Shown: piece after piece, positions 1-19,055 of the stretch
How the letters are laid out: each line of letters opens with the position of its first letter
Position numbering within the stretch: the first letter of the stretch is position 1
Origin: a virus
Lineage: Duplodnaviria > Heunggongvirae > Uroviricota > Caudoviricetes
Reading direction: 5' to 3' (one strand)
Length of the DNA: 21,552 bases
IMG/VR virus record: IMGVR_UViG_2718218127_000003
Made by a program: the position numbers and the translations under genes
Notes under the pieces: model-generated
Told to the model about the DNA's origin: nothing
The model's database searches: none
Seen by the model: the letters and a program-made list of their open reading frames with translations, nothing else

Positions 1-186
1 ATGGCAGAAAGGTTCGTGAAAACGATGAAGGAAGACTACATCGCGTTCATGCCGAAACCGAATGTAAGAACGGCATTGCATAATCTTGCAGTGGCGATCG
101 AACATTACAATGAAAACCATCCGCACAGTGCGTTGGGTTATCGCTCTCCGCGAGAATATCGACGTCAGCGGGTAACGTTAACTTAA
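1..186 (+). CDS. IS3-family (IS2-group-like) transposase OrfB, C-terminal fragment; 5' end lies outside the window
   Basis: Translation ends ...[25 protein letters not shown], the typical C-terminus of an rve/DDE transposase of the IS3 family. The ORF is open at the window start. Confidence 0.75.
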
Positions 187-223
187 GATACACCCCCTGT
201 CTGGAAATAAGGGGGCAAGAACA
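1..223 (+). mobile_element. Right end of an IS2-like insertion sequence (partial)
   Basis: The transposase 3' end is followed by GTCTGGAAATAAGGGGGCAAGAACA, which resembles the IS2 terminal inverted repeat and ends in CA. The exact terminus is approximate. Confidence 0.55.
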
Positions 224-227
224 ATGA

Positions 228-971
228 TCAGATTCCCTGGTGAGTAAGAATTTTACTTTCTGAACTCCTCTGAGAGTATTGACTTGGAGAAACACCAAAA
301 TAACGTCTAAATACATAAGTAAAGTATGAGACACTGGCATAACCACAGACCTTAGCTACTTTACTAATAGGATAACAACGAGTGCAGAGTAAATATTCAG
401 CCATTTGCATCCTCTCATCAAGTATGATCTTACTGAATGATACCCCCTCTTCTTTCAATTTCCTCTTTAGTAAACTTTCGCTGAGATATAATCTTGATGA
501 TATATCCTTAAGACGCCATGGTGCAGATAAATCCGTATGAATAATCGTTTTAACTTTAGCCCCTGTGCTTTTCAAACATTCAAACAGAAATACTCCAAAT
601 TGTTTTTCAGAAGAAAATGCAGAGAGACATGTAAAAGCAATAGACTCATCAAAAATTTCTATGTATTCAGCACAGTGATTAGCCCAACTAATTAATCCTT
701 TAATTAAACTGAAGTCAGCAAAGTTTATTTTTAAATAAGATGGATATTCCCTACAATCAGAAATTTCCCTTAAGTTATTAGCTTTCAAATAGCGACTAAT
801 AAACTCAGCGCCAAAATCCGCCACTATCACTCTTTCAGGATATGTCAGGAAAAAATCTCTAGAGCTAGAGTCGACAAGTACAGATGAACCTCTCTCCAGA
901 AACACACTCTCTTTTCCGAAATAAACATCAAAGGACTCCAAAATCAATATAACTGAACATGTAGTTGCCAT
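228..971 (-). CDS. AraC/XylS-family transcriptional regulator, AppY/EnvY-like (247 aa from the ATG)
   Basis: The C-terminal HTH region (...WRLKDISSRLYLSESLLKRKLKEEGVSFSKIIL...CGYASVSYFTYVFRRYFGVSPSQY) is typical of small AraC regulators such as AppY, EnvY and YdeO. The ATG at 969-971 is preceded by GGTGGA. The gene is AT-rich. Confidence 0.8.
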   Translation of the reverse strand: MATTCSVILILESFDVYFGKESVFLERGSSVLVDSSSRDFFLTYPERVIVADFGAEFISRYLKANNLREISDCREYPSYLKINFADFSLIKGLISWANHCAEYIEIFDESIAFTCLSAFSSEKQFGVFLFECLKSTGAKVKTIIHTDLSAPWRLKDISSRLYLSESLLKRKLKEEGVSFSKIILDERMQMAEYLLCTRCYPISKVAKVCGYASVSYFTYVFRRYFGVSPSQYSQRSSESKILTHQGI

Positions 972-1555
972 ATCATCCACCCAACTTAACTGAAACCAGG
1001 ATGAAGTATATGCATATAAAGTTCACTTTGCCAAACTTCAGTATAAAAAACCACATAAAAAATAGGGTGTGATAAAAAATACCGTAACAATAAAGCAAAG
1101 GATTATAAATTCCGTTACAGTTACAAATGATACTCAAGAAACAATTCCTTAGGAAAAACTTATTTACAGCCAATAAGTAAGACACTTATATGATATCAAG
1201 TTTTCATAAAACATAACTAGGCTAAATAGCTGCGCCTAATACCGCTACACTTTTGCCAGCCCATGTTTGCCTCCGGGTATTGACCCCTTCTCTACGCAAC
1301 TTCAGTTCCTACCACCAACTTTGCGGCAGCTTTGTAGGATCAATGTCTAAAAGAATAATGGTGACCGATAAGAAAACGACTGAATAACTGCAAATTTTCG
1401 CTCAAAACCTTCCTGTCAGATCCATAGCGAATCAAGTGCTGAATGTCACAGTATCGAACAGAAAACAGTGACGATCTAACCCTTCAAGAATATTCTACGA
1501 TTGTTCTGTTTAGGAAAAGCAAGGCGGGAAGTCGGGAGATAAGTCATTGATAAAG

Positions 1556-1617
1556 TGGCGGAGAGAGGGGGATTTGAACCCCCGGTAGAGTTGCCCCTAC
1601 TCCGGTTTTCGAGACCG
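1556..1617 (-). tRNA. Partial tRNA-Ser(CGA): 3' 62 nt only, from the anticodon stem through CCA; att remnant rather than a functional tRNA
   Basis: The minus strand reads CGGTCTCGAAAACCGGAGTAGGGGCAACTCTACCGGGGGTTCAAATCCCCCTCTCTCCGCCA, which is the anticodon arm (CGA), long variable arm, T arm, acceptor 3' strand and CCA of a serine tRNA. No D arm or 5' acceptor strand is present upstream. Confidence 0.7.
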
Positions 1618-2350
1618 ATGATACAGAGTCGAAAAATCAAAGAGTTAAAAATTTTTCTTGGAATAAATGTCTTAAAATCGTACACGAAAAATCAATGAAT
1701 TACATAACATTAAAGAAGAATATTCCAAGCCTTCTTGAGGCTACTACCTGTTTTCAGGTGTCATTCAGACGTGATTTGCCCCAGATTGGGAAAGCACGCT
1801 TTTTTCTCAGCTATCGTCCTCTTATTTTGCCGTTACATTTCTTTTTGCACTCTAATGATTAATTTACAATAATAATATCGGTAATTATTGAGTAATAATA
1901 AATTGATTATTGCAAATGTAATTTAATTCCATCTTCGCGTTATATTCCAATCTTTAATCTCCGCATGGAACAAGTTGCATGCGTGACTATATTAAGACAA
2001 CTTATAACCACCAAAACATTTGCTTTGCAAACAAAAACAGTGACCATTGACTCTAAGAAAATTCCGATCTATTGTTAGGGTCATCAAAGTTACTTAACAG
2101 TATTCCGAAATGAAAATACAAAGCAAGCTAATTGTCTTATTAAACATTATCATTGCATTTATATTATTTGAGCTTTTAGCTCAAAAATTTGGTTTGAGTA
2201 CATTATTTTAAAGCAAGATAAACAATATCGGGCACTCTAGTTTTTATAATTAACAATTAAACGTCCATAAAATGTTATTTACTTTTGTTCGCTATTGTCA
2301 CATCTTAATATAGTGGCTTACGCCACTCTACTTTCATCACATTTTGTACG

Positions 2351-2385
2351 TTTATGTACTCGCCATGAAGCTCTTTCATGGCGAT
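2351..2385 (+). terminator. Intrinsic terminator-like hairpin in the AT-rich spacer
   Basis: CGCCATGAA-gctct-TTCATGGCG (9-bp stem) followed by ATTTTTATTCTT. Confidence 0.4.
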
Positions 2386-2475
2386 TTTTATTCTTAATCC
2401 AAGAACATACTCCCTACCTATAGCAAAATCACTTTTTGAACAAAAGAATAACGTATTTAGGTAATCATTACGAAT

Positions 2476-3057
2476 TTACCCTATAGGTGCTACTGGCCAT
2501 TCAATATCCGGAGCAGTTGTTGTATTAACACGGTTCAGCAACACCCGATACTTTTTCCAGGCTTCCAGCAACGAGTTTTCTTCCTCCGTTGCGATTTCCA
2601 GATCTACAGCATCCTGAAGTGGCGCAATATGCTCATTCGCTGCCTGCATCAGGCTGTTTTTTGTTTCTTCCGCCTCCCGGATCCGGAATAGTTTTTCTGC
2701 TTCTGCATCTTTCACCCAGGCTGTGCCGTTCCACTTCTGAAACTCCCCTTCCGGGGATAACCAAGTGGCATTTTCCGGTAACGGACCGAGTTCAGAAATA
2801 AATAACGCGTCGCCGGAAGCCACGTCATAAACCGTTTTACCCCGATGATCTTCAACGAGATGCCACGATGCCTCATCACTGTTGAAAACAGCCACGAAGC
2901 CTGCCGGAATATCTGGCGGTGCAATATCGGTACTGTTTGCTGGCAGACCTGTATGAGGCGGAATATATGCGTCACCTTCACCAATAAATTCATTAGTTCC
3001 GGCCAGCAGATTATAAATTTTTATGGTCCGTGGTTGTTCACTCATTCTGAATGCCAT
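2476..3057 (-). CDS. Phage tail fiber assembly protein (Tfa)
   Basis: The N-terminus [54 protein letters not shown] is characteristic of lambdoid Tfa chaperones. The ATG overlaps the stop of the upstream stf fragment (TAATG). Confidence 0.85.
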
Positions 3058-3297
3058 TATGCAAGCCTCACAATATAGTTAAATGCGATGTTTTTGACGG
3101 TGTTTTCCGCGTTACCAGCAGCGTTAACGGTGATGGTATGTCCATGTGAACCAATCGCAACGGAGTGCGTATGAGCACCAATACCGACAGTATGTGCGTG
3201 TGCACCTGCGCTTGCAGCAGTACCCGATACAGAGTGCGTATGAGCGCCTGCAGAAGAAGTGTTAACACTGTATTTAGAATAATCAGGTGATCCACTT
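3057..3297 (-). pseudogene. Side tail fiber (stf) gene, 3'-terminal remnant of about 80 codons
   Basis: My own translation of an alternative minus-strand frame gives ...[79 protein letters not shown], the (G)AHTHSV-repeat C-terminus of lambdoid side tail fibers. There is no start codon; it is fused upstream to the nu1 fragment. Confidence 0.7.
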
Positions 3298-3625
3298 CCA
3301 CCACTTCAGCGGAGTCTCTGGCATTCTTCAGTTCCTGTGCGTCGGCCTGCGCACGCGTAAGTCGATGGCGTTCGTACTCAATAGTCCCTGGCTGGAGATC
3401 TGCCTCGCTGGCCTGGCGCAGTTCTTCAACCTCCCGGCGCAGCTTTTCGTTCTCAATTTCAGCATCCCTTTCGGCATACCATTTTATAACGGCGGCAGAG
3501 TCATAAAGCACCTCATTACCCTTGCCACCGCCTCGCAGAACGGGCATTCCCTGTTCCTGCCAGTTCTGAATGGTACGGATACTCGCACCGAAAATGTCAG
3601 CCAGCTGCTTTTTGTTGACTTCCAT
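3296..3625 (-). pseudogene. nu1: Terminase small subunit Nu1, N-terminal 110 codons only
   Basis: [110 protein letters not shown] matches lambda Nu1 as I recall it. After codon 110 the frame runs into out-of-frame stf sequence (the listed 185-aa ORF is a chimera). Confidence 0.85.
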
Positions 3626-3850
3626 TGTTCATTCCACGGCCAAAAACAGAGAAAGGAAACGACAGAGGCCCAAAAGCTCGTTTTCAGCACCTGTCGTTTC
3701 CTTTCTTTTCAGGGGGTATTTTAAATAAAAACATTAAGTTACAACGAAGAAGAACGGAAATGCCTTAAACCGGAAAATTTTCATAAATAGCGAAAACCCG
3801 CGAGGTCGCCGCCCCGTAACAGCCCGGATCGCCGGAAAGGACCCGTAAAT
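3626..3850 (-). other. Lambda-type cos site (cosQ-cosN-cosB); 12-nt cohesive end at 3803-3814
   Basis: The reverse complement of 3721-3814 reads GGGCGGCGACCTCGCGGGTTTTCGCTATTTATGAAAATTTTCCGGTTTAAGGC..., which is the lambda left-end/cos sequence. The flanking CGGAAAGGACCCGT matches the lambda right end. It sits directly upstream of nu1. Confidence 0.85.
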
Positions 3851-3968
3851 GAGATGCTTTGTTGTTTTCTTGTTGGCTGTTCAACTACATGCAAGCATAT
3901 GGCATAATATTTAATTGATAATCTAATAGTTATAAAAACTTGCCCCAAAACCTTAACGGAGACTAAGA

Positions 3969-4661
3969 ATGTCCAGAGAAGGAACGTTAGATTTATTGCA
4001 AGAAGTTGAAGAAACCGTTGAAATATTAAAAGATACGCAACAAATAAAACCAGTAAAGGTTAAATCAATACTTGAAAATTTAAGAAGCGCATTAGAATAC
4101 GTTGCGAATGATAGTTATGAAAAACATACCACTAACCAATCAACCCCTCGGCCAAAAATTTATTTCCCATACGGCGAGAAAAAATTTTTAGATGCTTTCT
4201 TTATTAAAAAATTAAACTGCCAGCAACCTGAATTATCTCCATTATATGCAGTTTTTGTTTCAATCCAAGACTATCAAACTGGTAATAACTGGCTTGGAAT
4301 GATGTGTAACCTCACGAACGAAGTAAAACATAGGAAACCAATCCCATTGAGTGAAGATAGTATTGTTCGAGGAATAGATGTTAATATCAATGGGTTTGGA
4401 TTAATTAAGACAGATGCTACATCAAAAATCATTTTCAGAGATAATTTCACCAATGGACAGAGAATTGAAGACTTCACCATTGAAAATGGTAAAGTTGAAA
4501 AATCAGGGAACGGAATCCCCATCAATATTAACATAACCGAAGAGAAAAAAATAAGATTCCACGGTACAGATTATGAGGTCATTCCTTTTGTAGAGTTATG
4601 TCTAAAAGAAATAAGAGATTTTGTTAATGAAGCATATGAAATTTTAGATGCCATTGAATAA
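3969..4661 (+). CDS. Hypothetical protein, 230 aa, no recognisable domain; gene at the bor position between Rz and cos
   Basis: ATG at 3969 is preceded by GGAG with 7-nt spacing. The gene is AT-rich relative to its neighbours and lies on the strand opposite the late genes. The product is hydrophilic with no signal peptide. Confidence 0.7.
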   Translation: MSREGTLDLLQEVEETVEILKDTQQIKPVKVKSILENLRSALEYVANDSYEKHTTNQSTPRPKIYFPYGEKKFLDAFFIKKLNCQQPELSPLYAVFVSIQDYQTGNNWLGMMCNLTNEVKHRKPIPLSEDSIVRGIDVNINGFGLIKTDATSKIIFRDNFTNGQRIEDFTIENGKVEKSGNGIPININITEEKKIRFHGTDYEVIPFVELCLKEIRDFVNEAYEILDAIE

Positions 4662-4756
4662 TAATGATTAAGTAACATGGCAGGTAATCTATTTAAACCG
4701 GCCATGTTACAAATCATTGACGTAGAGAAAAAATGTAAAGTATATCCTTTATATAC

Positions 4757-5260
4757 TCAATTGTAATTTGATGTCCTCACCGACTCATAAACGCGCTCAC
4801 ACGTCATTCCAGCCCGGTAGCTTTCGTCAGATCGCTCAGCATAATATCGAGCTTCTTCTGTAAGGCGGCCGAGCATGTCGGCGAGCACTGCGGCGTCGGC
4901 TCCGGCTGTTTTGCTTCTGACGGCAGCGGCAAGATCTGCGGTGTGCTTTGCGGCGTCCAGGCGGGCGGCAAGCTTTGTTGCTTCGGTGCGCAGCTGGTTA
5001 ACAGTGGCAGACAGGCCAGCAGCAGTGGCAGCAGATTTAGCTGCTTGTGCTTGTGCATCTTTTACAGCCTCATCACGGGCAATTATGCGCCCTTGTTCAA
5101 TCATGCGGGCTGCGGTCTGCGCGTTCGCTGTTTGCGATGATTCCGCGCTGTCACGTTCCGCCCACTTTTTTTCCCAACCGCGGCTACACCATATATTTCC
5201 AGCGATAAACGCACTGGTCACTAGTACCGCGGCAACAATAAGCTGGGAGCACAGGCTCAC
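4757..5260 (-). CDS. Rz-like i-spanin (inner-membrane spanin)
   Basis: N-terminal TM helix [23 protein letters not shown] followed by an Ala/Gln-rich coiled coil. The GTG start overlaps the endolysin stop (GTGA). Confidence 0.7.
4804..5058 (-). CDS. Rz1-like o-spanin lipoprotein, embedded in the +1 frame of Rz
   Basis: [23 protein letters not shown] has a lipobox (LTSC) and is followed by a Pro-rich segment. The gene lies entirely inside Rz, as in lambda Rz/Rz1. Confidence 0.65.
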
Positions 5261-5790
5261 TGGTCTATCCCCCAGCAGGTTAATGCACTCTCCTGGTCAC
5301 GACGAATAACCTGACCGTAACAATTATTTGAACGAATACGGCAATCACGTCCACCGTCCTTTATCCACCAGCGAATCGCCTCGCATGCGCCTTTACGATC
5401 ACCGGCATTAAGCCGCTTATAAAACGTCGACGGAAAACACTTACCAGGGCCAATGTTATAGGGACAGAATGACGCGATACCGGCTTTCTGTGGCTCGGTC
5501 AGTGGAACTTTTATATTGCGCTCCACCCATGCCAGCGCCTTATCCCGCTCAATGGCGTTAACCTGGGCGCATTTTTCCTTCGACAGTTTCATTCCCGGAA
5601 TAACAGGTTTACCGTCCACCATCGTTGCTCCCCGACAGATGGTCCATACGCCGGAGCCATCGCGGTATGCAGTGGTGTGATTCCCCTCTTTTTCATCAAG
5701 AAACTGATCGAGAATGTCAGGTGCAGGAGCACTGGCGGCAATCAGTGCCAGAACAGCAGCCGACAGGCTGTATCTGATTTTTACGTTCAT
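5257..5790 (-). CDS. Phage endolysin (GH24 lysozyme) with an N-terminal signal-anchor (SAR-type), RrrQ-like
   Basis: [56 protein letters not shown]... matches lambdoid lysozymes of the Qin/21 type. Confidence 0.85.
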
Positions 5791-5924
5791 GGATATTTAT
5801 CAGGATTTATCGGTTTCTGAACCCTGGATATGTTAAGCATTCAGCCCGTCAGTGGTAGGACACTGGCGCTCTGGTTAAGGATTATGGGGGATGCAGGCTG
5901 GGCTACCCCATCTGAGGATTTGAT

Positions 5925-6164
5925 ATGCAAAAAGAAGTTTTTATCAATATTACAGCTGACTGCTCATCTCCTGCATCAACAGCAAAAGAAATTGAAGCTC
6001 TTAAATATATGATTACAGTAATATTTACCGTATTGGACCAGAATGAAAAAAATGGAATCATTCATCAATTAAATGAACATGTAAATAATCCATATATCAA
6101 AAGCAATCTGGAAATGTTGCTACCAATGAAAGATATTGGAAAACCAACTGAAACAAAAGGCTAA
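5925..6164 (+). CDS. Small hypothetical protein (79 aa) inserted in the lysis cassette on the opposite strand
   Basis: ATG at 5925 is preceded by GAGGA with 6-nt spacing. The gene is AT-rich and has no recognisable family. Confidence 0.45.
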   Translation: MQKEVFINITADCSSPASTAKEIEALKYMITVIFTVLDQNEKNGIIHQLNEHVNNPYIKSNLEMLLPMKDIGKPTETKG

Positions 6165-6475
6165 CAACCCGTAATCGAGTTATCTGAACTGTTAATTTTT
6201 ATGGTATACCGCGCCTCTGAACAGGGGCGCGTTTCTGGCAACAGCTCGTCCCCTTCACATAACCCGGCAGCAACATCCAGGAAGACCTGTCTGATGCTCC
6301 TTCTGGCTGCTGCCTCATAAAACTCCAGCGCGGCACCTTCAACACGGTCCAGCGAGATGTCCAGGTCAAAAATTTCACCGTCAAAGCGTTTTTTGTCCCG
6401 TAACGCTAAAGTTACCGTAACTTTATTCTCAAAATTGCGGATCCCTTTCACAATCAGTTCATAGTTTTGAGTCAT
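6161..6475 (-). CDS. YdfR-like protein (DUF1327 family) of the Qin-type lysis cassette
   Basis: MTQNYELIVKGIRNFENKVTVTLALRDKKRFDGEIFDLDISLDRVEGAALEFYEAAARRS... ATG at 6473-6475 with GGGGAGAG upstream. It sits between holin and endolysin, as ydfR does between essQ and rrrQ. Confidence 0.7.
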   Translation of the reverse strand: MTQNYELIVKGIRNFENKVTVTLALRDKKRFDGEIFDLDISLDRVEGAALEFYEAAARRSIRQVFLDVAAGLCEGDELLPETRPCSEARYTIKINSSDNSITGC

Positions 6476-6479
6476 TGAA

Positions 6480-6695
6480 TTACTCTCCCCGTGCAGCCTT
6501 GCGCTTATCTTCTTTAATCTTGAAATAAAGGTTTGTCAGGTACGTCAGCAGGCCAAATACCAAGCTACCCAGCACACCTATTGCTGCCCACTGTGAGGGC
6601 GTGACTTTATCGAGCAGCTGTAAAAACCAGTAGCCAGCACTGCCTGCGGAGGTGCCGTAGGCAATGCCCGTTGTTAACTTATCCATGGATTTCAT
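6480..6695 (-). CDS. Class II holin, phage 21 S (pinholin)-like, with a dual-start motif
   Basis: [71 protein letters not shown], 71 aa, with Met1 and Met4 (antiholin/holin starts). Strong SD GGAGGTG. Confidence 0.85.
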
Positions 6696-6786
6696 AGCCT
6701 CACCTCCGCAAATAACGGATGGTGTACACGGTTCGGAACGAAGAGGAAAGGTATAGAAGTTACATTAGCGTAAGGCTTGAACATCT

Positions 6787-6821
6787 ATTCAAAAAGAAAA
6801 ACGCCAGCGATTATTCTGGCG
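6787..6821 (-). terminator. Intrinsic terminator downstream of the AraC-like gene and upstream of the holin
   Basis: On the minus strand: CGCCAG-aataatcg-CTGGCG followed by TTTTTCTTTTTG. Confidence 0.55.
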
Positions 6822-6888
6822 TAGCTGAAAGCATCATACAATTATCAAATACGAAAATTACAAAATCATTAAAACGCATCACGTTACA

Positions 6889-7614
6889 TCATGTCTTTTC
6901 TAAAAAAAATCTTGATGAATATTGATGGGGAGGAACACCAAAATATCTTCTGAAAACACTTACAAAATATGACGTGTTTTCATAACCGCATATCTCAGTA
7001 ACTTTTCCAACAGAATATAAATTGTAGCTTAATAACCTTTCCGCCATCACCATTCGCTCTTCAAGAATTAACTTACTAAATGATAAGCCTTCGTGCTTTA
7101 ATTTTCCTTTTAACAGACTTTCACTCAGATACAGTCTTGAAGATATATCACAAAGTCTCCATGCTGCAGATATATCCGTGTGAATAATAGCCTTAACTTT
7201 ACTTCCTAAACTATTAAGACATCCAAATAAAAAACTTTGCACTATTTTCTCTGAAGATAAGATAGCAAGACATGCAAGTGATATTTGATTTCTAACAAAA
7301 TCCACAGTTCTGCCATCACAATTCAAGCATGCAATCAAGTTCTTTAACAATGAAAAATCTTCACATTCCACCATCAAGTATGCCGGATAAAACCTTCTTA
7401 CAGAAAAAGGTGAGAGTGTGTTGCTTTTAAAGAAATCATTAACTGTTTTCTCTTCAACATCTACGATCATTGCATGATCTATATTTGATGAAAAAAAATC
7501 TTTTAAATTGTAATCAATGAGAACAGCACTTCCTTTTTTAAATAAAATATCTTCTTTACCAATTCGGACATCAAACGAGTTCAACACCAAAATGATAGAA
7601 CATATGTATGGCAT
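6889..7614 (-). CDS. AraC/XylS-family transcriptional regulator, AppY/EnvY-like (241 aa from the ATG); paralog of 228..971
   Basis: ...WRLCDISSRLYLSESLLKGKLKHEGLSFSKLILEERMVMAERLL...CGYENTSYFVSVFRRYFGVPPHQYS. ATG at 7612-7614 is preceded by AGGTGG. The gene and its 350-bp upstream region are AT-rich. Confidence 0.8.
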   Translation of the reverse strand: MPYICSIILVLNSFDVRIGKEDILFKKGSAVLIDYNLKDFFSSNIDHAMIVDVEEKTVNDFFKSNTLSPFSVRRFYPAYLMVECEDFSLLKNLIACLNCDGRTVDFVRNQISLACLAILSSEKIVQSFLFGCLNSLGSKVKAIIHTDISAAWRLCDISSRLYLSESLLKGKLKHEGLSFSKLILEERMVMAERLLSYNLYSVGKVTEICGYENTSYFVSVFRRYFGVPPHQYSSRFFLEKT

Positions 7615-7965
7615 ATTATCCACCTGATATCATTGGGGTTACACCAGGTAAGTATAGGTGGAAAATCAATATTCGCCAGTTCAACAATAAGGAAAATCTC
7701 ATTGCATCACAAGTATAAAATTATGTATTTAACTCACAAAGACAAATTATTAAACCAATCTGTTATATTATATATAGCTGCGTGGAATCATAATATTATA
7801 TATTTTGACTGGCATGTTTACCAACTTTAAGTTGCATCTCAATGGTTTCTTCAGCGTAAACAGAGTTTTTATACAAACTGACACTCTGGGTATCATAGTG
7901 TAGTTTTTACGATTGTAAATATCCTGCATGCAGGAACTCATCCTTTTGGATGATATCGCATACAA

Positions 7966-8925
7966 TTAATTTACCATCAGTCTTAGAGCCAGTTCGTCCG
8001 GATAGGGATCGAAGTAATTCTGTGTAAGCAAGTAATCATTAGGATACTCACCCAGATAATGCTTCAGCAGAGTCAACGGCGCAAGAAGAGGTAATGTGCC
8101 AGAACGATAGTTAAGTATAACCTCGCTCAACTCTTTACGCTGGCGTGTACTTAAGTAGTTACTAAAATACCCCTGTATATGCATCAGCACATTCGTGTGA
8201 TTTTTACGTGATGCAGGTTTTCTGAGAATCGCCATCAGCTTATCACGATACACCTCAAAGTATGATTCAAGGTCCGCCCACTCGTGTATTGCAGCCACAA
8301 ATGGTCCCATATCTTTATAGCCTGCCTGACTATGCGCCAACAACTGAAGCTTATAACGACTATGAAAAGCTAATAACTCTCTTCTTGATAATTTCTCCTT
8401 GTAAAGGTGATTGAGCTCATGCAAAGCAAAAACTCTTTCAACAAAATTCTCACGAAGCACTGGATCATGTAATCGCCCATCCTCTTCAACCGGTAGCCAG
8501 GAAAACTTTTCCATCAAAGTGCTCGTAAATAGTCCCACTCCATCTTTACGACCTCGATTACCATTTTCATCATAGACACGCACGCGCTCCATGCCACAGC
8601 TGGGAGATTTAGCACAAACCACAAACCCCGATACATCCTTTAATTTGTCCATATAAGAACGACTAAACTCTGTCATTCTCTCTGTCACATCCTCATTCTG
8701 GTCGTGGCTGAAACACATCCGAATATTTCCTTGCGTCGAGCGCACAAGACGTAGAGCAGGACGCGGAACTGGCAGCCCTATAGCCATTTCCGGACATACT
8801 GGTCTGAATGTTACCCATTCCACTAATTTGTCCATTAAAAAGTCAGCTCTTTTGTGACCACCATCAAAACGAACAGCAGAACCGGCCAGACAACCGCTGA
8901 TTCCAATCACAGGTTTTTTTATCAT
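7966..8925 (-). CDS. YbgA-family protein: N-terminal DUF523 (TudS-like, Cys-rich) fused to C-terminal DUF1722
   Basis: MIKKPVIGISGCLAGSAVRFDGGHK...PVCPEM...VVCAKSPSCGME carries the conserved cysteines and SPSCG motif of the DUF523/thiouracil-desulfidase family, with a helical C-terminal half. Strong SD GGGGGAGG. Confidence 0.75.
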   Translation of the reverse strand: MIKKPVIGISGCLAGSAVRFDGGHKRADFLMDKLVEWVTFRPVCPEMAIGLPVPRPALRLVRSTQGNIRMCFSHDQNEDVTERMTEFSRSYMDKLKDVSGFVVCAKSPSCGMERVRVYDENGNRGRKDGVGLFTSTLMEKFSWLPVEEDGRLHDPVLRENFVERVFALHELNHLYKEKLSRRELLAFHSRYKLQLLAHSQAGYKDMGPFVAAIHEWADLESYFEVYRDKLMAILRKPASRKNHTNVLMHIQGYFSNYLSTRQRKELSEVILNYRSGTLPLLAPLTLLKHYLGEYPNDYLLTQNYFDPYPDELALRLMVN

Positions 8926-9117
8926 ATCCTCCCCCTTGACTAATTCATTAACACATAAACTGTGTAGTGCACGGAATAAATTGCCTTTCTGGCGTCATCA
9001 CTGACAATTTTTCTGTTATGGACTATTCCTAATATAGTATGAAAGTTCTTTAAGTGATCGGTCGTAATCATCTATCTTTCATACTTACTCTCAACTATCA
9101 AAAGTACAGGATTTATT

Positions 9118-9642
9118 ATGAAGTTATGGCCTGTGTTGACTGGCATTGCACTCTCTTTCACTCTTATAGCATGTAAGGCCCCGACACCACCTAAAGGTGT
9201 GCAGCCGATTACAAATTTTGACGCCAACCGCTACCTCGGAAAGTGGTATGAAATAGCTCGCCTCGAGAACCGGTTCGAACGTGGTCTGGAACAGGTCAGC
9301 GCTACTTATGGAAAACGGAACGACGGAGGGATTCGTGTACTTAACCGTGGATACGATCCAACGAAAAATAAATGGAGCGAGAGCGAAGGTAAAGCATACT
9401 TTACTGGAGATACTAAAACTGCAGCGTTGAAGGTTTCGTTTTTTGGCCCCTTCTATGGTGGCTATAATGTAATCAAACTGGATGATGAGTATAAGTATGC
9501 TCTTGTCAGTGGTCCGAACAGAGAATACCTATGGATTCTGGCAAGGACCCCAACTATTCCAGATAAAGTAAAAGCAGACTATGTGCGAACCGCTCAAAAG
9601 TTGGGATTCAATGTCAATGAATTATTATGGGTTAAACAATAA
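9118..9642 (+). CDS. blc: Outer-membrane lipocalin lipoprotein, Blc family (paralog-like, prophage-borne)
   Basis: Lipoprotein signal MKLWPVLTGIALSFTLIAC, then ...NFDANRYLGKWYEIARLENRFERGLEQV...GKAYFTG...LKVSFFGPFYGGYNVI...YLWILARTP..., the bacterial lipocalin signature. Confidence 0.85.
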   Translation: MKLWPVLTGIALSFTLIACKAPTPPKGVQPITNFDANRYLGKWYEIARLENRFERGLEQVSATYGKRNDGGIRVLNRGYDPTKNKWSESEGKAYFTGDTKTAALKVSFFGPFYGGYNVIKLDDEYKYALVSGPNREYLWILARTPTIPDKVKADYVRTAQKLGFNVNELLWVKQ

Positions 9643-9667
9643 AATCCCTACCCGAAATAATACTTAT

Positions 9668-9697
9668 TAGAAAAAAACCAGCCTTTGGGGAGGCTGG
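9668..9697 (-). terminator. tR'-like intrinsic terminator about 100 nt downstream of Q
   Basis: On the minus strand: CCAGCCT-ccccaa-AGGCTGG followed by TTTTTTTCT. The position matches the lambda pR'-tR' unit on which Q acts. Confidence 0.55.
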
Positions 9698-9797
9698 CTA
9701 AATCAGGAAACAAGCTGTTATATGATAATAACTACGTTGCGATTCCAACATTTAAAATGTTAGACTAATGAGAATCAGACAGCAACTTTTCCTTTAA

Positions 9798-10175
9798 TTA
9801 TTTCGAACAATCAGCATCCATCTCCAATCGGAGATCCAACACCATCAGCATACCCTCCACTACGCCCTCAGCTTTCTGGAGCATCCTGCCAACCCAACAA
9901 TCAGATCGCCCATGCTTACGTGCAAGCGCCATAAAAGTCATGCCGCCGACATAATAGTCCACCAATAAATCGTGCAAATCGCTGTTGTTCTTTTTCAGAC
10001 GGGCCATGCACCCGCAAATGATCATCGCGTCATCGTCACAACATTGCGGGCGAGATTTTACTTTTGAAGGAATTAATCCCTTAAAACCGGCGGCAATGGA
10101 CGACCAGGTCACATCTTCATGATTATTAGCCGCCCATGCTCCCCAACGCTCCAGAACCATCTGAATATCACGCAT
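9798..10175 (-). CDS. Late-gene antitermination protein Q (phage 82/21 type, QuuD-like)
   Basis: [76 protein letters not shown]... The ATG at 10173-10175 is preceded by GGAG; the TTG 4 codons upstream used by the ORF track is less likely. Confidence 0.85.
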
Positions 10176-10192
10176 CAACTTTCTCCACAAAA

Positions 10193-11188
10193 TCAGGCCA
10201 GCACACCAATCGCCAGCGCACGATCGATAAAACGAAATATCAGCTCCAGCTGGGAGCCATACTTCTCTTCAAATGCCACGGTATCCGCATGCAGCTCGTC
10301 GTGATGCTTTCTGCACAAAGGCAACACAAAAAGGTCATGCGCTTTTGTACCCATTCCACCCTGACCGTGGCCTATCAGGTGATGGGGATCATCGGCGGGC
10401 TTTCCACAACATGCACACGGCTGCGTCTTAACCCAGCGCGTGTACTTTTCATTAACCCAGCGGCGACGTTTTGGGCGTAACATAAAAGACTCCGGCGACT
10501 CCGGCTCCACTTTCAGCGCCAGCACCTTTTTCGCTTTATCCTGGATGATGCTGGTGGCAGGAACCGAAGGAACAAGATCACTTTCCCGGGTGACAGACGG
10601 CACAACAGGCTTCGGTAATCTCAGTGCCTTACGGGCTGCACTTTCCGGTAAGGCATCCGCCAGGTCATTACGAACCAGCCACCAGCACAGTTCCGGCATT
10701 GTCACAACGTGACTGTCATCAAAACCGAGATCCCGACGCACGACAGACAACACCCAGCGGGCACAGTTATCCGTTGCCATTGATTCCAGCCGTTCCGTGA
10801 ACTGATCGCGCAGCTGGTTATCGCAGTGCCAGCACAGACGGATTGCGCCCGGAGCGTGTCGCATTGTGGTCATGTTCTCGCTGTGCCAGTCGGAATGAGG
10901 CCACTGGCAGCCTTTTTCACGAAGTAACCAGCTTTCAAGACATTCCACGCCACCAGCACGACGGATCACCGCCTCATTGCGGAACACAGACCGAACGGCA
11001 GGATCATCCGCCAGTGGTTGTAATGCCGCCGGAACGGCACCACTGGAAAAAGATGAATAATGTTCCGGCTCAGGCTCCAGCAGGACACGCCCCTGCATAA
11101 ACAGGGGCATCAGCTCTGAACCGGGTCTGAACAATACGATCCCCATACGCGGGGCAACTTCAGGGGTCAGTAGTGCTCTCACGGTCAC
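10193..11188 (-). CDS. DUF968-family prophage protein (YdfU-like) with a C-terminal HNH-like Cys/His motif
   Basis: C-terminus ...[47 protein letters not shown]. It lies immediately upstream of Q, as ydfU does in Qin. The start is GTG and uncertain. Confidence 0.7.
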
Positions 11189-11189
11189 C

Positions 11190-11763
11190 TCAATGAACGG
11201 TATCGAGCAGCTTTAACAGCTCAGGGAATCGGGATTCGAAGAAATGCGGCTGCGTCTCGCGCGGATTTGCGGGACTGGTGATATTCTTGCCGAACATGCA
11301 GCCTTTCGCTGTCAGCGACCAGAATTTTTTGATGTTGTTAATCGCGGTACGGCTGTATCGTTCGCGCTGCTCGACGATCCCCAGCTTCACCATCTGGTGA
11401 TATGCCTGATTAGCTGTCAGGCGGATACCATACTGCTTCAGCAGTGCACTCAGTGACAGCGTGGGGCGGCTTGAGCCATCAGGCGCGTCAGCAGGAGCAT
11501 CAATGGCATAGCGCGGTGCCAGATTCGGTACCCTGGCGACGCGCCTTACGCGTTAACCAGCCTTCTGCTTCCAGCCGTGCGATAGCCGTCCTGACGGTAC
11601 TCATCCCCGCGCCAATCTGACGGGCAATAGTTTCAATTGATGGCCAGCACACACCTTCGTCATTACTGAAATCAGCCAGGCGGGCCATAATTGCCACGCT
11701 GGATAATTTCATGCCTGATGCAGCGCAACCATCCCATACATAGCCGGTTAATTTAGTGCTCAT
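11190..11763 (-). pseudogene. Helix-turn-helix phage protein (replication/regulatory-like), apparently frameshifted near 11500-11520
   Basis: The 87-aa ORF (MSTKLTGYVWDGC...RLEAEGWLTRKARRQG) stops at 11500, and protein-like sequence continues in another frame (RYAIDAPADAPDGSSRPTLSLSALLKQYGIRLTANQAYHQMVKLGIVEQ...) into the 67-aa ORF ending at 11190. Confidence 0.5.
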
Positions 11764-12111
11764 GACCGACCTCTATTTCCCTGAATTTACGACGAAACTG
11801 TTCGAGCGGGCTGAAGCACTCATGCTCATAGCCTTCGCGGAGGTAGATAACTCGTTGTGTTTCCGGCTCCCAACGAATGACTCTGACGGGCACTCCGTAG
11901 TGATCTTTGAACCAGCGGTTAACTTGTCGCAAAGGACTGTCTCCTTCTGCCGGTTGAAATCACCCACAGCCCACTCAGCAAAGCTGTGGGTTACAATTTC
12001 CCTGTCACCTGGTACATTAACTGCATAGCAATACTCCACCTTCGCTTTTCCACCCGGTACAGGAAGCGCAATCAGTTGCGAGCGACGGTAGTGTGTTGTT
12101 AAACTGTTCAT
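11753..12111 (-). pseudogene. Hypothetical phage early protein, frameshifted near 11940-11975
   Basis: The N-terminal frame ([50 protein letters not shown]) then degrades, while another frame gives protein-like ...[62 protein letters not shown], whose stop overlaps the next ATG. Confidence 0.5.
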
Positions 12112-12671
12112 GCGTTAGTTTCTCCACAGTCACGACACGCCACGGCGCCCGGAGCTGCACACTCGCGGGCGTCATTACTTTCTGAAATGCAAAAGATTTT
12201 GTAGACCAGTGCTGCATGCTCCTGCAGCTTCGAAATTGAGAGATACAGCTCGTCGTTAATTGCTGTCTTCTCATGCGGTTCCACTACACCGTCTTCGATT
12301 GCTGAACGAATCTGTTTTGAATAACTGCCGATCTGTTCAATGACTTCCAGCAGACGCTGGTTAATATCGGCGTTGTCCACATCCTCGACGTCAGGAAGAG
12401 ACACAAAGACGCCATTTGCAGACTGCGCCACAGCGTCAGCAATGAAGTGAGTTCCACCAGCACGTTGCAAAATCATTGCCCATCCCAGCGGGAAAATCTG
12501 ATCGCCATCGGCACGAAGGCGGTTAAATAATGCGTTCTCTGTTACATCCAGCCAGTCAGCCGCTTCAGCGTAACCACCCGGCAACGCCGCGATAGTTTTT
12601 CTGACAGCTTTCACGTACCACTCAGGCTGTTTTTCTATTTTCCAGTGATGCTTACCCACGATTAGCCTCAT
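12108..12671 (-). CDS. Phage regulatory protein, CII-like / YdaT-like, downstream of cro
   Basis: 187 aa with ATG at 12669-12671. Its stop overlaps the next gene start (ATGA). It is second in the pR-side operon after cro, as ydaT/cII are. Confidence 0.6.
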
Positions 12672-12702
12672 CGTTCTGTGGTTAAAAATTGAAAGTGTTC
12701 TG

Positions 12703-12903
12703 CTAATCTTTCGGATAGATATCCGGTCTTAAGTCAGATTTCGTAATTGCACCTGACGTGCATTGCTCAAGTTTTTTAGCCAGCACAAAACTGGCTTTTT
12801 TATAGCCATTGAAAACCAGCCGTAAGTAGCCAGGTGTTGAGCCAACTTTTCCGGCCAACTCGCCCTGCTGTTCTTTGGTTAAAGAGTCCCAATACGCTTT
12901 CAT
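12703..12903 (-). CDS. Cro-like HTH regulator (YdaS family), 66 aa
   Basis: MKAYWDSLTKEQQGELAGKVGSTPGYLRLVFNGYKKASFVLAKKLEQCTSGAITKSDLRPDIYPKD. ATG at 12901-12903 with SD GGAGGT. Divergent from the cI-like gene. Confidence 0.8.
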   Translation of the reverse strand: MKAYWDSLTKEQQGELAGKVGSTPGYLRLVFNGYKKASFVLAKKLEQCTSGAITKSDLRPDIYPKD

Positions 12904-12906
12904 ACA

Positions 12907-12978
12907 ATATGTACCTCCGGTGTACATATTACATGATTGAAATGAACCTTCAAGATACTTGTACCTTAACGGTACAAG
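12907..12978. promoter_or_regulatory. Immunity operator/promoter region (oR-like) with two palindromes between cro and cI
   Basis: ATATGTAC-ctccggt-GTACATAT (12907-12929) and CTTGTACC-ttaac-GGTACAAG (12958-12978) share the half-site (A/T)TGTACC. Confidence 0.5.
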
Positions 12979-12993
12979 GGTTTTAATTTCGTT

Positions 12994-13668
12994 ATGAAAA
13001 CAATCCATGACATCCGGCGGTCTAACGCCAGAAAACTGAGAGATGGTGTTGGCGGGAATTCTTCCTTTGCCACTATGATTGATCGCGAGCCAACCCAGAC
13101 CAGCAGGTTTATGGGAGATGGTGCTACTAAAAATATCGGTGACAGCATGGCACGACACATCGAAAAATGTTTCGACCTGCCTGTCGGATGGCTCGATCAA
13201 GAACACCAGACAACGAACATCACAAAAAAACCTGATGTTTCAATCACTAATAAACAAATCACATTAGTCCCTGTCATATCATGGGTACAGGCCGGAGCAT
13301 GGAAAGAAGTTGGATATTCTGAGGTTGATTTGAGCACAGCAGAAACGTATCCCTGCCCTGTACCCTGTGGGGAAATGACTTATATCTTGCGGGTGATAGG
13401 TGATTCAATGATTGATGAGTACCGCCCGGGAGACATGATTTTTGTCGATCCTGAAGTACCTGCCTGCCACGGTGACGACGTTATTGCATTGATGCACGAT
13501 ACAGGTGAAACCACCTTCAAAAGGTTGATAGAAGATGGGACACAGCGTTATCTCAAAGCGTTAAACCCAAACTGGCCTGAGCCTTACATTAAGATCAACG
13601 GTAATTGCTCTATAATTGGAACTGTGATTTTCTCAGGAAAACCAAGAAGATACAAAATCAAAGCCTAA
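12994..13668 (+). CDS. cI-like prophage repressor: N-terminal HTH, C-terminal S24 (LexA-like) autopeptidase
   Basis: The C-terminal domain has an AG cleavage site (VQAG/AW), the GDSM serine motif and a downstream Lys (TFKRL). The ATG has almost no SD, consistent with a leaderless pRM-type transcript. Confidence 0.85.
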   Translation: MKTIHDIRRSNARKLRDGVGGNSSFATMIDREPTQTSRFMGDGATKNIGDSMARHIEKCFDLPVGWLDQEHQTTNITKKPDVSITNKQITLVPVISWVQAGAWKEVGYSEVDLSTAETYPCPVPCGEMTYILRVIGDSMIDEYRPGDMIFVDPEVPACHGDDVIALMHDTGETTFKRLIEDGTQRYLKALNPNWPEPYIKINGNCSIIGTVIFSGKPRRYKIKA

Positions 13669-13688
13669 TCAATGTTTATGAACCTGCT

Positions 13689-13712
13689 TCGGCAGGTTTT
13701 TTTATACTTGAC
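13689..13712 (+). terminator. Intrinsic terminator after the cI-like gene
   Basis: AACCTGC-ttcg-GCAGGTT followed by TTTTTTT. Confidence 0.6.
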
Positions 13713-13715
13713 AAT

Positions 13716-13749
13716 GTACCTTTGAGATACATAATGTACCCAAGAGAAA
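13716..13749 (+). promoter_or_regulatory. pL-like promoter overlapped by an operator palindrome
   Basis: TTGACA-N16-CATAAT. The spacer contains ATGTACC-tttga-GATACAT (13722-13740), the same half-site and 5-bp spacing as the oR palindromes, plus a further ATGTACC at 13742-13748. Confidence 0.5.
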
Positions 13750-13816
13750 CAACAAACAGGCAGGACGCCCACGAAGTATCCGCCTGGGGCATATGAAGTC
13801 CAGGATGATTCGTTAG

Positions 13817-13846
13817 CAACAAAAAAGCGCCCTACAGGACGCTTAG
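13817..13846 (-). terminator. Intrinsic terminator downstream of the 173-aa gene
   Basis: On the minus strand: AAGCG-tcctgtaggg-CGCTT followed by TTTTGTTG. Confidence 0.45.
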
Positions 13847-13885
13847 CTCTTTAACAATCTGGGTATCATCCAACCAATGCAAGAT

Positions 13886-14407
13886 TTAAGGAATCCAAGG
13901 CGAATTCAGATCTCGCCCCAACTCACGTAATGATCTTGGTCGTTCGTACATCGGATTTTTTTCCATAAGAAATTTATTTTCACAGTGAAGGCAACGGCTT
14001 GTAAGAAAATGAGAAGTTTTACCTACTGGAAGCGGATGAAGTATCGATTTTATATTTTTGGAATAACAAAGTGGGCACAGATGCACAGTTATTTCTTTTC
14101 CACTCACAATTTCATTTTTAGAGTAAACAAAAGCACCAGAGTCAAGCTGATCAAGGACATATCCTTCTACCTTGGCACAAAAATCTTCAAACTCTGCAAT
14201 TTTTGCTTTGAGATGCATCACCTCTTCATCACGAAGGCGGATCGCATCGCCAAGAGAGAAGCATTCTGCCTGAAGCGTGATTAGTTTGTTCTGGAGTTCA
14301 ATGGTTGCAGCTTTAACTTCTGCATCCGTTTTCGCGTCATTAATAACCTTAGCAAGACCGGCAGTCTCCTTTATAGCGGCCATAGCCGCAGACAGTTCAG
14401 CTATCAC
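13886..14407 (-). CDS. Hypothetical protein, 173 aa: N-terminal coiled coil and C-terminal CxxC-X22-CxxC zinc-ribbon-like motif
   Basis: ...HLCPLCYSKNIKSILHPLPVGKTSHFLTSRCLHCENKF. The gene is AT-rich, convergent with cI, and has its own terminator. The start is uncertain (GTG at 14405-14407 or the ATG 8 codons in). Confidence 0.55.
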   Translation of the reverse strand: MIAELSAAMAAIKETAGLAKVINDAKTDAEVKAATIELQNKLITLQAECFSLGDAIRLRDEEVMHLKAKIAEFEDFCAKVEGYVLDQLDSGAFVYSKNEIVSGKEITVHLCPLCYSKNIKSILHPLPVGKTSHFLTSRCLHCENKFLMEKNPMYERPRSLRELGRDLNSPWIP

Positions 14408-14876
14408 GTTGAATACTCAGCTAGTTGTTGGGGATATCCAGATTAACCAAATCCTTGTTGTTGGGGAATAACTAGGTCCACCTCGCCTGATGTGGCTAAA
14501 AGCAGGCACATAACAGCTAAGTATTTTCAACCAGAGAGAATCCTTAGCGTTGTGGTGAATGCGGCTCAGCGCACGCGGGTTAAGGTTGAGGCTGACAGTC
14601 GACCTTCTGTGGATACCCACCCGCCTGGTGTGCAACCTTCGCCAGGCACCGGGAGGCACCCGGCACCACAACTTTATGCTGTGTGTAGTCCTGGCGGTAT
14701 CAGCTTGTACCCTTGCTTCCGGCTGGTACCGTCCTTTTTACAAAACAGAGAAGAGCATCACCGGACGACGGGCTCATAACCCAATCCATCCGGGCGGCTG
14801 CCACCGCAGGTGTTCTTCTCTGTTTTGTGGAGAAACCAACCGACCCTGCAGGGTCGATATGATGGGGAGCAGCAAA

Positions 14877-15239
14877 ATGGCTAGCGAACGCAGTACTGAT
14901 GTGCAGGCATTTATCGGGGAGCTGGACGGCGGCGTATTTGAAACCAAAATCGGCGCAGTTCTCAGTGAAGTCGCTTCCGGTGTGATGAACACGAAAACCA
15001 AAGGTAAGGTCTCGCTCAACCTGGAAATCGAACCGTTTGATGAGAACCGTGTAAAAATCAAACACAAACTCTCATATGTTCGCCCGACTAACCGCGGGAA
15101 AATTTCCGAAGAAGACACCACCGAAACGCCGATGTATGTCAATCGCGGTGGTCGCCTGACTATTCTGCAGGAAGACCAGGGACAATTACTGACTCTTGCC
15201 GGTGAACCTGACGGAAAACTCCGCGCAGCAGGTCGTTAA
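14877..15239 (+). CDS. YfdP-like prophage protein (120 aa)
   Basis: MASERSTDVQAFIGELDGGVFETKIGAVLSEV... ATG at 14877 is preceded by GGGGAG with 7-nt spacing. The upstream in-frame extension is GC-rich and low-complexity and is rejected. Confidence 0.7.
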   Translation: MASERSTDVQAFIGELDGGVFETKIGAVLSEVASGVMNTKTKGKVSLNLEIEPFDENRVKIKHKLSYVRPTNRGKISEEDTTETPMYVNRGGRLTILQEDQGQLLTLAGEPDGKLRAAGR

Positions 15240-15304
15240 TATCGTTTTTAATAAACTGATTATTTATCTCATCACTGAATATCTTTATATAGTGAGGACT
15301 TATT

Positions 15305-16129
15305 ATGTCTCAGAACTTAGACGCAACCGCAATTAATCAAATCCATGCCCTTATTTCTGCTCAGGGTGTTAATGAAATTATCAGTAAGATTGGTGCCGAT
15401 GCTGTGGCATTGCCTGAGAATTTCCGCATTCATGATCTGGAAAAATTTAATTTAAATCGCTTCCGTTTCCGTGGTGCGCTTTCCACTGCCAGCATCGATG
15501 ACTTTACCCGTTATTCTAAAGATCTTGCAGATGAAGGCACCCGCTGCTTTATCGATGCTGATAATATGCGAGCCGTCAGTATGCTTAACCTGGGTACTAT
15601 TGATGAACCAGGTCACGCAGATAACACCGCCACTCTCAAACTGAAAAAGACAGCACCGTTCTCTGCCCTGTTGTCTGTTAACGGCGAGCGTAACTCCCAG
15701 AAGTCACTGGCAGAATGGATTGAAGACTGGGCCGACTACCTTGTGGGCTTTGATGCTAATGGTGACGCCATTCAGGCAACAAAAGCGGCTGCGGCGGTCC
15801 GTAAAATCACGATTGAAGCAAACCAGACCGCTGATTTTGAAGACAATGACTTCAGCGGCAAACGCTCTCTGATGGAGTCTGTCGAAGCGAAAACCAAAGA
15901 CATTATGCCAGTAGCATTTGAGTTTAAATGCGTTCCGTTTGAAGGCCTGAAAGAACGTCCGTTTAAATTACGCCTCAGCATTATCACTGGTGATCGCCCT
16001 GTACTGGTTCTGCGCATTATTCAGCTGGAAGCAGTGCAGGAAGAAATGGCTAACGAATTTCGTGATCTGCTTGTTGAAAAATTCAAAGACAGCAAAGTAG
16101 AAACCTTTATTGGTACTTTCACCGCCTGA
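15305..16129 (+). CDS. YfdQ-like prophage protein (DUF2303 family), 274 aa
   Basis: Good SD (TGAGGA). The size and position match yfdQ in the CPS-53-type early-left module. Confidence 0.75.
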
Positions 16130-16141
16130 TTTCATTACTGC

Positions 16142-16166
16142 AAATGCCCCTGCGGGGGCATTTATG
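16142..16166 (+). terminator. Strong stem-loop between the yfdQ-like and yfdR-like genes (possible attenuator or partial terminator)
   Basis: AAATGCCCC-tgcg-GGGGCATTT, a 9-bp GC-rich stem, followed by AT-rich sequence but no clean U-run. Confidence 0.3.
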
Positions 16167-16256
16167 GAAACGTAATTAACTCAATAATCGCCTGATGGCG
16201 AGGGTTTTCTTTAACCAAAATTCAGCGCGGTGCAGCGCATATACGTGGAGAACAAA

Positions 16257-16793: not shown

Positions 16794-17146
16794 ATGTTTT
16801 CGAAATGGAAGGGTTTCTTCGTGGGAGATGTGTACCGCGAGATCTGAAAGTAAATGAAACAGATGCTGAATACCTGGTGCGTAAATTCGATGCGCTTGAA
16901 GCTAAATGTGCAGCACAGGAAAACAAAGTAATACCAGTGTCAACTGAACTGCCACCAGCAAATGAAAGTGTTTTGTTATTCGATGCTAACGGAGAAGGCT
17001 GGCTAATTGGCTGGCGTTCTCTCTGGTACACCTGGGGACAAAAAGAAACCGGAGAATGGCAGTGGACATTTCAGGTCGGGGACCTTGAAAACGTCAATAT
17101 CACTCACTGGGCAGTAATGCCAAAAGCACCGGAGGCTGGAGCATAA
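16784..17146 (+). CDS. DUF551-family prophage protein (YfdS-like), 120 aa
   Basis: C-terminal Trp-rich segment ...GEGWLIGWRSLWYTWGQKETGEWQWTF... SD GGAG. Overlaps its neighbours, consistent with an operon. Confidence 0.75.
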   Translation: MRMNVFEMEGFLRGRCVPRDLKVNETDAEYLVRKFDALEAKCAAQENKVIPVSTELPPANESVLLFDANGEGWLIGWRSLWYTWGQKETGEWQWTFQVGDLENVNITHWAVMPKAPEAGA

Positions 17147-17475: not shown

Positions 17476-17497
17476 GATGGCTTAAAGAGAGGTGCCC

Positions 17498-18969: not shown

Positions 18970-19055
18970 GCGGCGTACTTCGCAAAGCTGTCCGACTGAG
19001 GTACGCCTTTATCCGTGACAACTCCTGTTGCTGGCCTGTTCGCCTGCTCTGTCGG

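Follow-up and report, generated by a model that had tools for sequence, protein, structure and literature searches.

A displaced serU fragment within a defective Escherichia coli lambdoid prophage is most probably the fossil of an earlier integration

Displaced 3' copies of tRNA genes at the ends of prophages have long been established, and tRNA fragments, together with direct repeats, are commonly used for calling prophage boundaries. It is also well known that the specialised transducing phages lambda bio and lambda gal arise by imprecise excision. In STEC, the tRNA gene serU is a recognised site of prophage integration (PMC7067040), and tccP is carried on the prophage CP-933U/Sp14 (PMC2884950).

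The organization of a true serU lysogen can be seen in ECL27977, where the order is mtfA, intact serU, integrase, prophage, gpJ, tail fibre, a tfa remnant, a 62-nt piece of serU, the spacer and yodB. The intact serU at attL has two compensatory changes in its variable arm and is followed by phage DNA directly after CCA, unlike the copy at attR, which retains the native variable arm and the native flank. The attL change consists of GTAGGGGCAACTCTAC being replaced by GTGGGGGCAACTCCAC, a compensatory pair (positions 14065-14126 of the extracted locus). Lysogens, in which the phage rebuilds serU with this pair in place of the native one, therefore express a slightly different tRNA-Ser. Other serU prophages, that is, the espJ/tccP prophage of O157:H7 and a GIY-YIG/pinE type, have differing phage arms at the same place, so that three different arms meet the serU piece at one boundary, within 1 nt. 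Judged from the aligned sequences, such a common boundary is the signature of site-specific recombination, unlike that of random breakage.

In this work, we describe a serU piece of the attR kind in a different setting. The window, that is, the whole stretch of DNA that we analysed, comprises 21,552 nucleotides (IMG/VR record IMGVR_UViG_2718218127_000003). Its features are:

1-186, plus strand: ISEc48-like transposase of the IS3 family ("integrase core domain"), C-terminal fragment; the edge of the window cuts it, and it forms the outer portion of the cargo
228-980, minus strand: AraC-family regulator, phage cargo (Pfam HTH_AraC and HTH_18)
1223-1277, no strand assigned: 3'-end remnant of an IS630-family element, 55 bp (92.9% identical to the end of the transposase gene on plasmid pJNE23-001_1)
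1278-1555, minus strand: serU-yodB spacer, captured host DNA, 278 bp, matching C43(DE3) and bearing the shared diagnostic haplotype
1556-1617, minus strand: 3' 62 nt of serU, tRNA-Ser(CGA); displaced host copy with the attR att core and a host-type variable arm
1618-2475, minus strand: arm A, which is the non-coding, AT-rich (31% GC) arm on the phage side of the former serU attR, also found in ev099 and mEp332
2476-3057, minus strand: tfa, tail fibre assembly (Pfam Caudo_TAP, E = 6e-43), annotated likewise in MB06022
3057-3625, minus strand: fusion of a tail-fibre C-terminal remnant (3057-3278) and an N-terminal fragment of Nu1 (3266-3625; Pfam Phage_Nu1, E = 2e-69)
3296-17434, minus strand: defective lambdoid backbone with lysis genes, Q, DUF968, ymfL/T/K immunity and yfdP-yfdT-like early genes
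17435-21552, no strand assigned: IS nest and CP4-6-island DNA (ISX-like end, IS30, IS3-family orfB, yagJ segment, IS1)

Read on the minus strand, window positions 1556-1617 correspond to CGGTCTCGAAAACCGGAGTAGGGGCAACTCTACCGGGGGTTCAAATCCCCCTCTCTCCGCCA, which matches nucleotides 29-90 of serU without a single difference over its 62 positions (reference: the annotated 90-nt serU of E. coli C43(DE3)). The piece begins at base two of the anticodon stem and finishes with the CCA of a tRNA-Ser gene with the anticodon CGA. The D arm and the 5' acceptor strand are missing, and the 28-mer from the 5' end of serU has no match in the window with one mismatch allowed. ARAGORN found no tRNA gene in the window and Rfam found no tRNA there at gathering thresholds; the piece does not contain the complete cloverleaf of a functional tRNA-Ser gene. 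These results agree with the original prediction in three respects, namely that the piece is a 62-nt 3' part of tRNA-Ser(CGA) reaching from the anticodon arm to CCA, that the D arm and 5' acceptor strand are lacking, and that no complete tRNA would be found.

A permissive Rfam scan of positions 1400-1800 returned solely artefactual partial matches, none of them informative: a plastid 3'UTR family on the opposite strand, a weak sX4 and an 18-nt T-arm of tmRNA. The first of these ("Plastid-psbl-rps4 3'UTR", 1559-1610 on the plus strand, opposite the tRNA piece, E = 2e-07) belongs, at a guess, to a family built antisense to a plastid tRNA-Ser gene, and the match would then be an artefact. Between 900 and 2600, a scan for promoters and terminators revealed no minus-strand site resembling a terminator close to the fragment, and sites resembling promoters were as frequent as expected from shuffled sequence; for this reason we do not claim that a serU terminator insulates the AraC gene. 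The fragment most likely has no function of its own.

The match to serU is far above chance, because it continues beyond the tRNA piece for a further 278 bp (1278-1555) that correspond to the spacer downstream of serU toward yodB, an extension that the original prediction had not remarked upon. The whole block (1278-1617, 340 bp) is 97.4% identical to the native serU locus of C43(DE3). On the other side of the piece follows a phage stretch of 975 bp (1618-2592), as in the attR of ECL27977, and the window from 1278 to 2592 is colinear with that true serU attR at 98.9% identity over 1,316 bp. Moreover, the serU copy of the window is of the native, displaced type, with the variable arm and the downstream flank of the host. 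In sequence and in orientation the fragment thus resembles the native serU attRs of ECL27977 and of the O157:H7 espJ/tccP prophage, and with ECL27977 it also shares the phage arm; in both cases the origin would be integrase recombination within the tRNA gene. By origin, then, the piece is to all appearance the attR of a serU-integrated prophage. The original prediction had recognised it as a displaced 3' tRNA copy of the attR type with the tail end of a prophage on its 5' side, and both points are upheld by the comparison with ECL27977: the flank and variable arm are those of the host, unlike those of the attL copy, and the phage arm is colinear. The differences lie on the chromosomal side, which in the window is just 278 bp long, in the locus, which is not serU, and in the surroundings, the scar being placed within mobile DNA that uses other attachment sites.

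If chromosomal DNA had instead been duplicated or transposed by IS elements, with no relation to a serU integration, the end of the fragment in the anticodon stem would be accidental. IS remnants do flank the module (IS630-family at 1223-1277, IS3-family at 1-186), and the native spacer is a target of IS elements, since in MB06022 an IS66 insertion lies about 15 bp from where the captured block ends. Nevertheless, true serU lysogens have their attR junction at precisely the base where the fragment has its inner end, the same phage arm continues beyond it throughout 1618-2592, and three phage arms share this boundary to within 1 nt. We regard such an accident as extremely improbable.

A search of 5,426 complete E. 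coli genomes, 5,422 of which had some match to the query, indicated how sharply the serU homology is limited. In native serU loci (spread sample of those listed) the match begins precisely at 1278, and in none of them is the AraC gene part of it. The serU-derived DNA of the window, just 340 bp, stops at 1278 against the IS630 remnant, which is followed by the AraC gene. The remnant joins the spacer at a TA dinucleotide through a breakpoint internal to the IS, and it is identical in the window and in phage ev099. We also considered the AraC gene as native to the serU locus, but this is unsupported, as the listed native loci match only from 1278 onward.

The same arrangement is found in phage genomes. 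Window positions 600-1700 match the deposited phages PhiR70_1, ev099 and mEp332 at 99.2-99.7%, PhiR70_1 reaching 99.7% over the 1.1-kb core (the comparison covered 600-1700), and the 278-bp serU spacer and the att scar lie within all three phage genomes. With ev099 and mEp332 the window is colinear from 1 to 3245 at about 98.3% (98.3-98.4%). The order in ev099 is J, lom, stf, tfa, arm A, the 62-mer, the 278-bp spacer, the IS630 remnant, AraC, IS fragments, the lambda core, int and xis; the 62-mer is exact (61/62 in mEp332) and the lambda attP core, GCTTTTTTATACTAA, is located at 5619-5633 of the extracted segment. The module of ev099 therefore lies between tfa and attP/int, which is the classical b-region slot. 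Like the window, ev099 (Radostvirus) and mEp332 have IS fragments, AraC, the IS630 remnant, the serU spacer, the serU piece, arm A and tfa in this order. In ev099 the module is then followed by the lambda attP core and int/xis, unlike in the window, where the att side lies beyond position 1. The rest of the prophage in the window is a different and deleted backbone.

Complete prophages with recognisable ends also contain the module. In strain 214-4, a complete lambda-like prophage lies between ybhC and ybhB with a lambda core at both ends and the module inside. The prophages of Sakai (Sp1), H52_982342 and strain 107 begin at thrW, with the module between the tail end and the displaced 3' copy of thrW, after which a P4-like element starts. 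In an O112ab:H8 strain, arm A, the module and the thrW copy adjoin another integrase-bearing element. The curated Sakai annotation places the regulator and the ISEc48 fragment within Sp1. This prophage shares with the window the IS630 remnant, the 340-bp serU block, the haplotype, the ISEc48 fragment and an AraC protein of 99% identity, and differs from it in being integrated at thrW and in having another arm, with a GIY-YIG gene, pinE and invertible tail-fibre genes. By its colinear parts and shared haplotype, window 1-3245 can be classed as a cargo module of the ev099/mEp332 type, which is also that of Sp1. The module is thus already present in reference genomes and phage records, with the tRNA piece unannotated, and in a limited search we found no description of an internal serU scar in the literature.

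The protein encoded by the AraC gene is identical at 244 of 247 positions (99%) to ECs_0287 of O157 Sakai Sp1. The EDL933 counterpart of Sakai Sp1 we take to be CP-933H/OI-8, encoding the AraC-like acid-resistance regulator PatE. According to a review, the AraC-like PatE (z0321, OI-8) activates acid-resistance genes and represses LEE genes (PMC10877973). On the basis of that review and of the 99% identity to the Sakai Sp1 regulator, the window gene is probably an orthologue of PatE, if ECs_0287 is equated with z0321, as we presume. The IS3 fragment at the outer end adjoins the AraC gene in ev099 too; its counterparts are a partial integrase-core-domain CDS in MB06022 and an "ISEc48 Family: IS3 partial" in Sakai Sp1.

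The relocated copies of the serU block share one haplotype, CTGCCAAC, which is common to the window, ev099, mEp332 and the relocated prophage copies. The diagnostic bases at 1330, 1333, 1334, 1341, 1365, 1404 and 1408 are common to eight relocated copies, namely those of the window, of MB06022, of three prophages at the lambda site and of three at thrW, and the blocks of ev099 and mEp332 also have the relocated haplotype. The four native copies examined, including MB06022's own native spacer, differ from it. The closest native haplotype is that of GIMC1405:EC_Lstone01, whose native and unoccupied serU locus has 6/8 of the diagnostic bases; the captured DNA therefore derives from a real E. coli haplotype that differs from those of the present hosts. 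The annotation of GIMC1405:EC_Lstone01 lists no yodB between zinT and serU. One shared haplotype fits a single capture event followed by horizontal spread. About 500 of the 5,426 genomes have an AraC-linked copy of the block, and many of these are O157:H7 with an Sp1-type prophage. Exactly the configuration of the window (AraC-linked and with arm A) is found in 100 of the 5,426, and the Sp1-type configuration, with a second arm that we call arm B, in about 400. At the native serU attR, arm B occurs in only 5 genomes, plus 2 in which it is interrupted by IS4. The shared haplotype may be used as a marker for tracing a cargo module that lies beside a regulator linked to acid resistance and LEE control.

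All this bears on whether a serU-integrated prophage could have its present attR at the fragment, with chromosomal DNA at low coordinates and an intact serU and integrase past the right edge, as the original prediction had it. The orientation is right, the sequence is of the host type, the phage arm is the one found at the true serU attR of ECL27977, and the site is a recognised one in STEC (PMC7067040). Against this, the serU-locus homology ends at the IS630 remnant and the AraC gene, 278 bp past the tRNA, so that the fragment does not mark the distal prophage junction. In addition, the AraC regulator and the IS fragments, which had been regarded as non-phage DNA, are part of the ev099 and mEp332 phage genomes and lie within att-bounded prophages.

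The genomic surroundings point the same way. We infer what flanks the window edges from MB06022 and NCTC11023. MB06022 is the closest complete genome and covers 78% of the window (none of the 5,426 reaches 80%), with an essentially 100% match up to 16738. Its copy of the locus has paoD/yagP on one side and afuC/mmuM/mmuP on the other. The intact serU of MB06022 lies 1.89 Mb off, between mtfA and yodB, with an IS66 element in its spacer and with no prophage and no integrase alongside. On the att side of the module in MB06022, neither a lambda core nor a thrW copy was found, and that side is cut off by an IS-truncated junction with yagP. The window itself lacks a lambda core, any fragment of thrW or argU, and a tyrosine integrase. 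The right end of the window matches CP4-6 DNA of K-12, and the nearest intact relative of the backbone ends in intD beside argU. The window locus is the thrW/CP4-6 island region, and the fragment is internal to mobile DNA, not a current boundary between prophage and chromosome. The locus lends no support to an intact serU and an integrase past the right edge, and we consider a present serU attR very improbable. The original prediction was to fail if the genome had no second copy of the repeat; such a copy exists, but it is not the other end of this prophage. Its proviso that IS elements might have removed the integrase end holds better, for 17435-21552 is an IS nest with no tyrosine integrase.

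In the native serU spacer of MB06022, the inserted element is the IS66-family ISEc23, some 15-25 bp from the end point of the captured block (about 7457 and 9988-10013 of the extracted native locus). The AT-rich serU spacer may be a preferred IS target.

The practical consequence concerns the calling of prophage boundaries. A boundary called here from the serU fragment would be about 1.5 kb too far in and would imply the wrong attachment site and the wrong integrase. We see the main value of the locus in this caution, and in the marker that it provides for the PatE-type cargo module.

The remainder of the prophage has a different history from that of its tail end. Homology to the module phages stops at 3245 and nohD-type homology begins at 3296; the fusion at about 3245-3296 (ORF 3068-3625), where MB06022 has partial CDS annotations, is a single deletion scar by which all head and tail genes were lost. 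At the equivalent place, RM10410 has a different deletion, with a tail protein fused to a fragment of the terminase large subunit. The backbone is 93.6% identical to that of the 2013C-4282 prophage ending in intD beside argU, and it is truncated at 17434 by an ISX-type element. In 2013C-4282, the closest intact relative of the backbone, intD lies by tRNA-Arg (argU) at about 28743-29998 of the extracted locus. As this relative uses intD/argU, the backbone too does not point to serU. The window prophage thus combines a backbone related to argU prophages with the tail end of a serU phage, in the thrW island.

The presence of an AraC regulator, tfa and nohD had also suggested the right end of K-12 DLP12, with appY, at argU. 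We rejected this candidate, given that neither the AraC gene nor the serU block matches anything in the K-12 DLP12 region and that the MB06022 locus lies elsewhere.

Some minor features of the prophage may be mentioned. Wholly inside tfa, 2516-2714 on the minus strand give a full-length match to Rfam "IS009" (212 bits, E = 4e-52), a family that may model a conserved tfa coding segment and not a separate RNA gene. Genes of the YbgA and lipocalin families (7966-8925 and 9118-9642) lie between Q and the lysis genes, a typical position for morons, and are kept in related prophages (2013C-4282). The transposases of the IS nest have Pfam rve and HTH_38 domains, and the nest as a whole matches ISX, IS30, yagJ and IS1 of K-12 CP4-6, with neither integrase nor tRNA in 17435-21552. 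Its IS30 is complete, and 910 bp are 100% identical to the yagJ region of K-12. Nearly the same IS cluster is found, at 98.7%, on many E. coli plasmids from pigs and poultry.

Taken with the phage genomes, the locus is best explained as follows: the serU fragment is, very probably, a molecular fossil of an earlier serU integration, now carried as passive cargo inside mobile DNA. The comparisons show what the block is and where it stops, that phage genomes contain it, that it lies inside att-bounded prophages and that it has a single haplotype; from this we infer the mechanism of capture and the order of events. A lambdoid phage integrated into serU by site-specific recombination inside the 62-nt block of identity, with the crossover most likely in the anticodon arm, and this left the displaced 3' copy of the host tRNA gene at the tail-fibre end as attR. 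Later, attR and at least 278 bp of the adjoining chromosome would have been taken into the phage genome, either by imprecise (lambda-bio-like) excision or by an IS630-associated deletion or fusion. Since then the block has probably been carried passively in the b-region slot, from tfa to attP/int, beside the PatE-like AraC regulator, and the module may have passed by ordinary lambdoid recombination among phages with lambda-type and thrW-type integration modules. The copy in the window would have reached its IS-bounded state through deletions and IS events in the thrW island. A large inversion between prophages was considered as the means by which the scar was relocated and rejected by reasoning, as it would keep yodB beside the fragment.

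The proposed capture resembles that of lambda bio and lambda gal in that host DNA contiguous with the att site enters a phage genome and reaches new hosts and sites. There are differences as well. The outer junction is an IS630 remnant, internally truncated and ending at TA, which fits an IS-associated deletion as well as an aberrant excision, and the captured DNA is non-coding. Moreover, excision is established for lambda bio and gal, whereas the capture seen in the window is known through comparison of sequences. The fossil leaves the known biology of phage integration unchanged, the capture of host DNA by imprecise excision being long established. What it offers is a clean natural record of a temperate phage picking up att-adjacent DNA and carrying it to other phages and sites.

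One finding is unexpected for a purely passive fossil, that is, two different phage arms occur on one and the same block. Because both are genuine serU attR arms on one block, a later exchange within 1409-1617 is required. Homologous recombination could have brought it about, or else an integrase acting on the att core that is still present, and the data fit both. If the latter, the fossil serU core might still be an active secondary attachment site at which integrases of serU phages swap arms and move the AraC cargo, a reading compatible with the fossil origin and not exclusive of it. It would account for a same-haplotype block that abuts two unrelated arms exactly at the inner edge of the 62-mer, for the occurrence of both combinations in numbers (arm A in 100 genomes, the Sp1-type arm B in about 400), and for the fact that arms A and B are both also true attR arms at native serU. 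In addition, arm B of HCP5S3_I2 ends at a 16-mer resembling the serU anticodon arm, after which a different cargo follows. Homologous recombination anywhere within the roughly 209 bp that separate the last diagnostic site (1408) from 1617, however, would give the same products; a crossover in the core cannot be mapped, since all copies are identical there, and the window contains no serU-type integrase. An active site of this kind seems to us unlikely, if not negligibly so. That the serU core in the b region is a working site shuttling the PatE-type module among serU-, thrW- and lambda-site phages is, by the same comparisons, a doubtful proposition, and our preference stays with the passive fossil. 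Were it true, unrelated temperate phages would be able to swap cargo by way of an att site.

The end of the arm in HCP5S3_I2 looks like a recombination point for cargo exchange. The Sp1-type arm ends there at CGGTCTCAAAAACCGC (about 6001-6020 of the extracted locus), which differs at a single position from the anticodon stem-loop of serU and has GGAC in front of it, as intact serU does. In this strain the place of the AraC module is taken by a gene of the lipase family, and a thrW copy lies further out.
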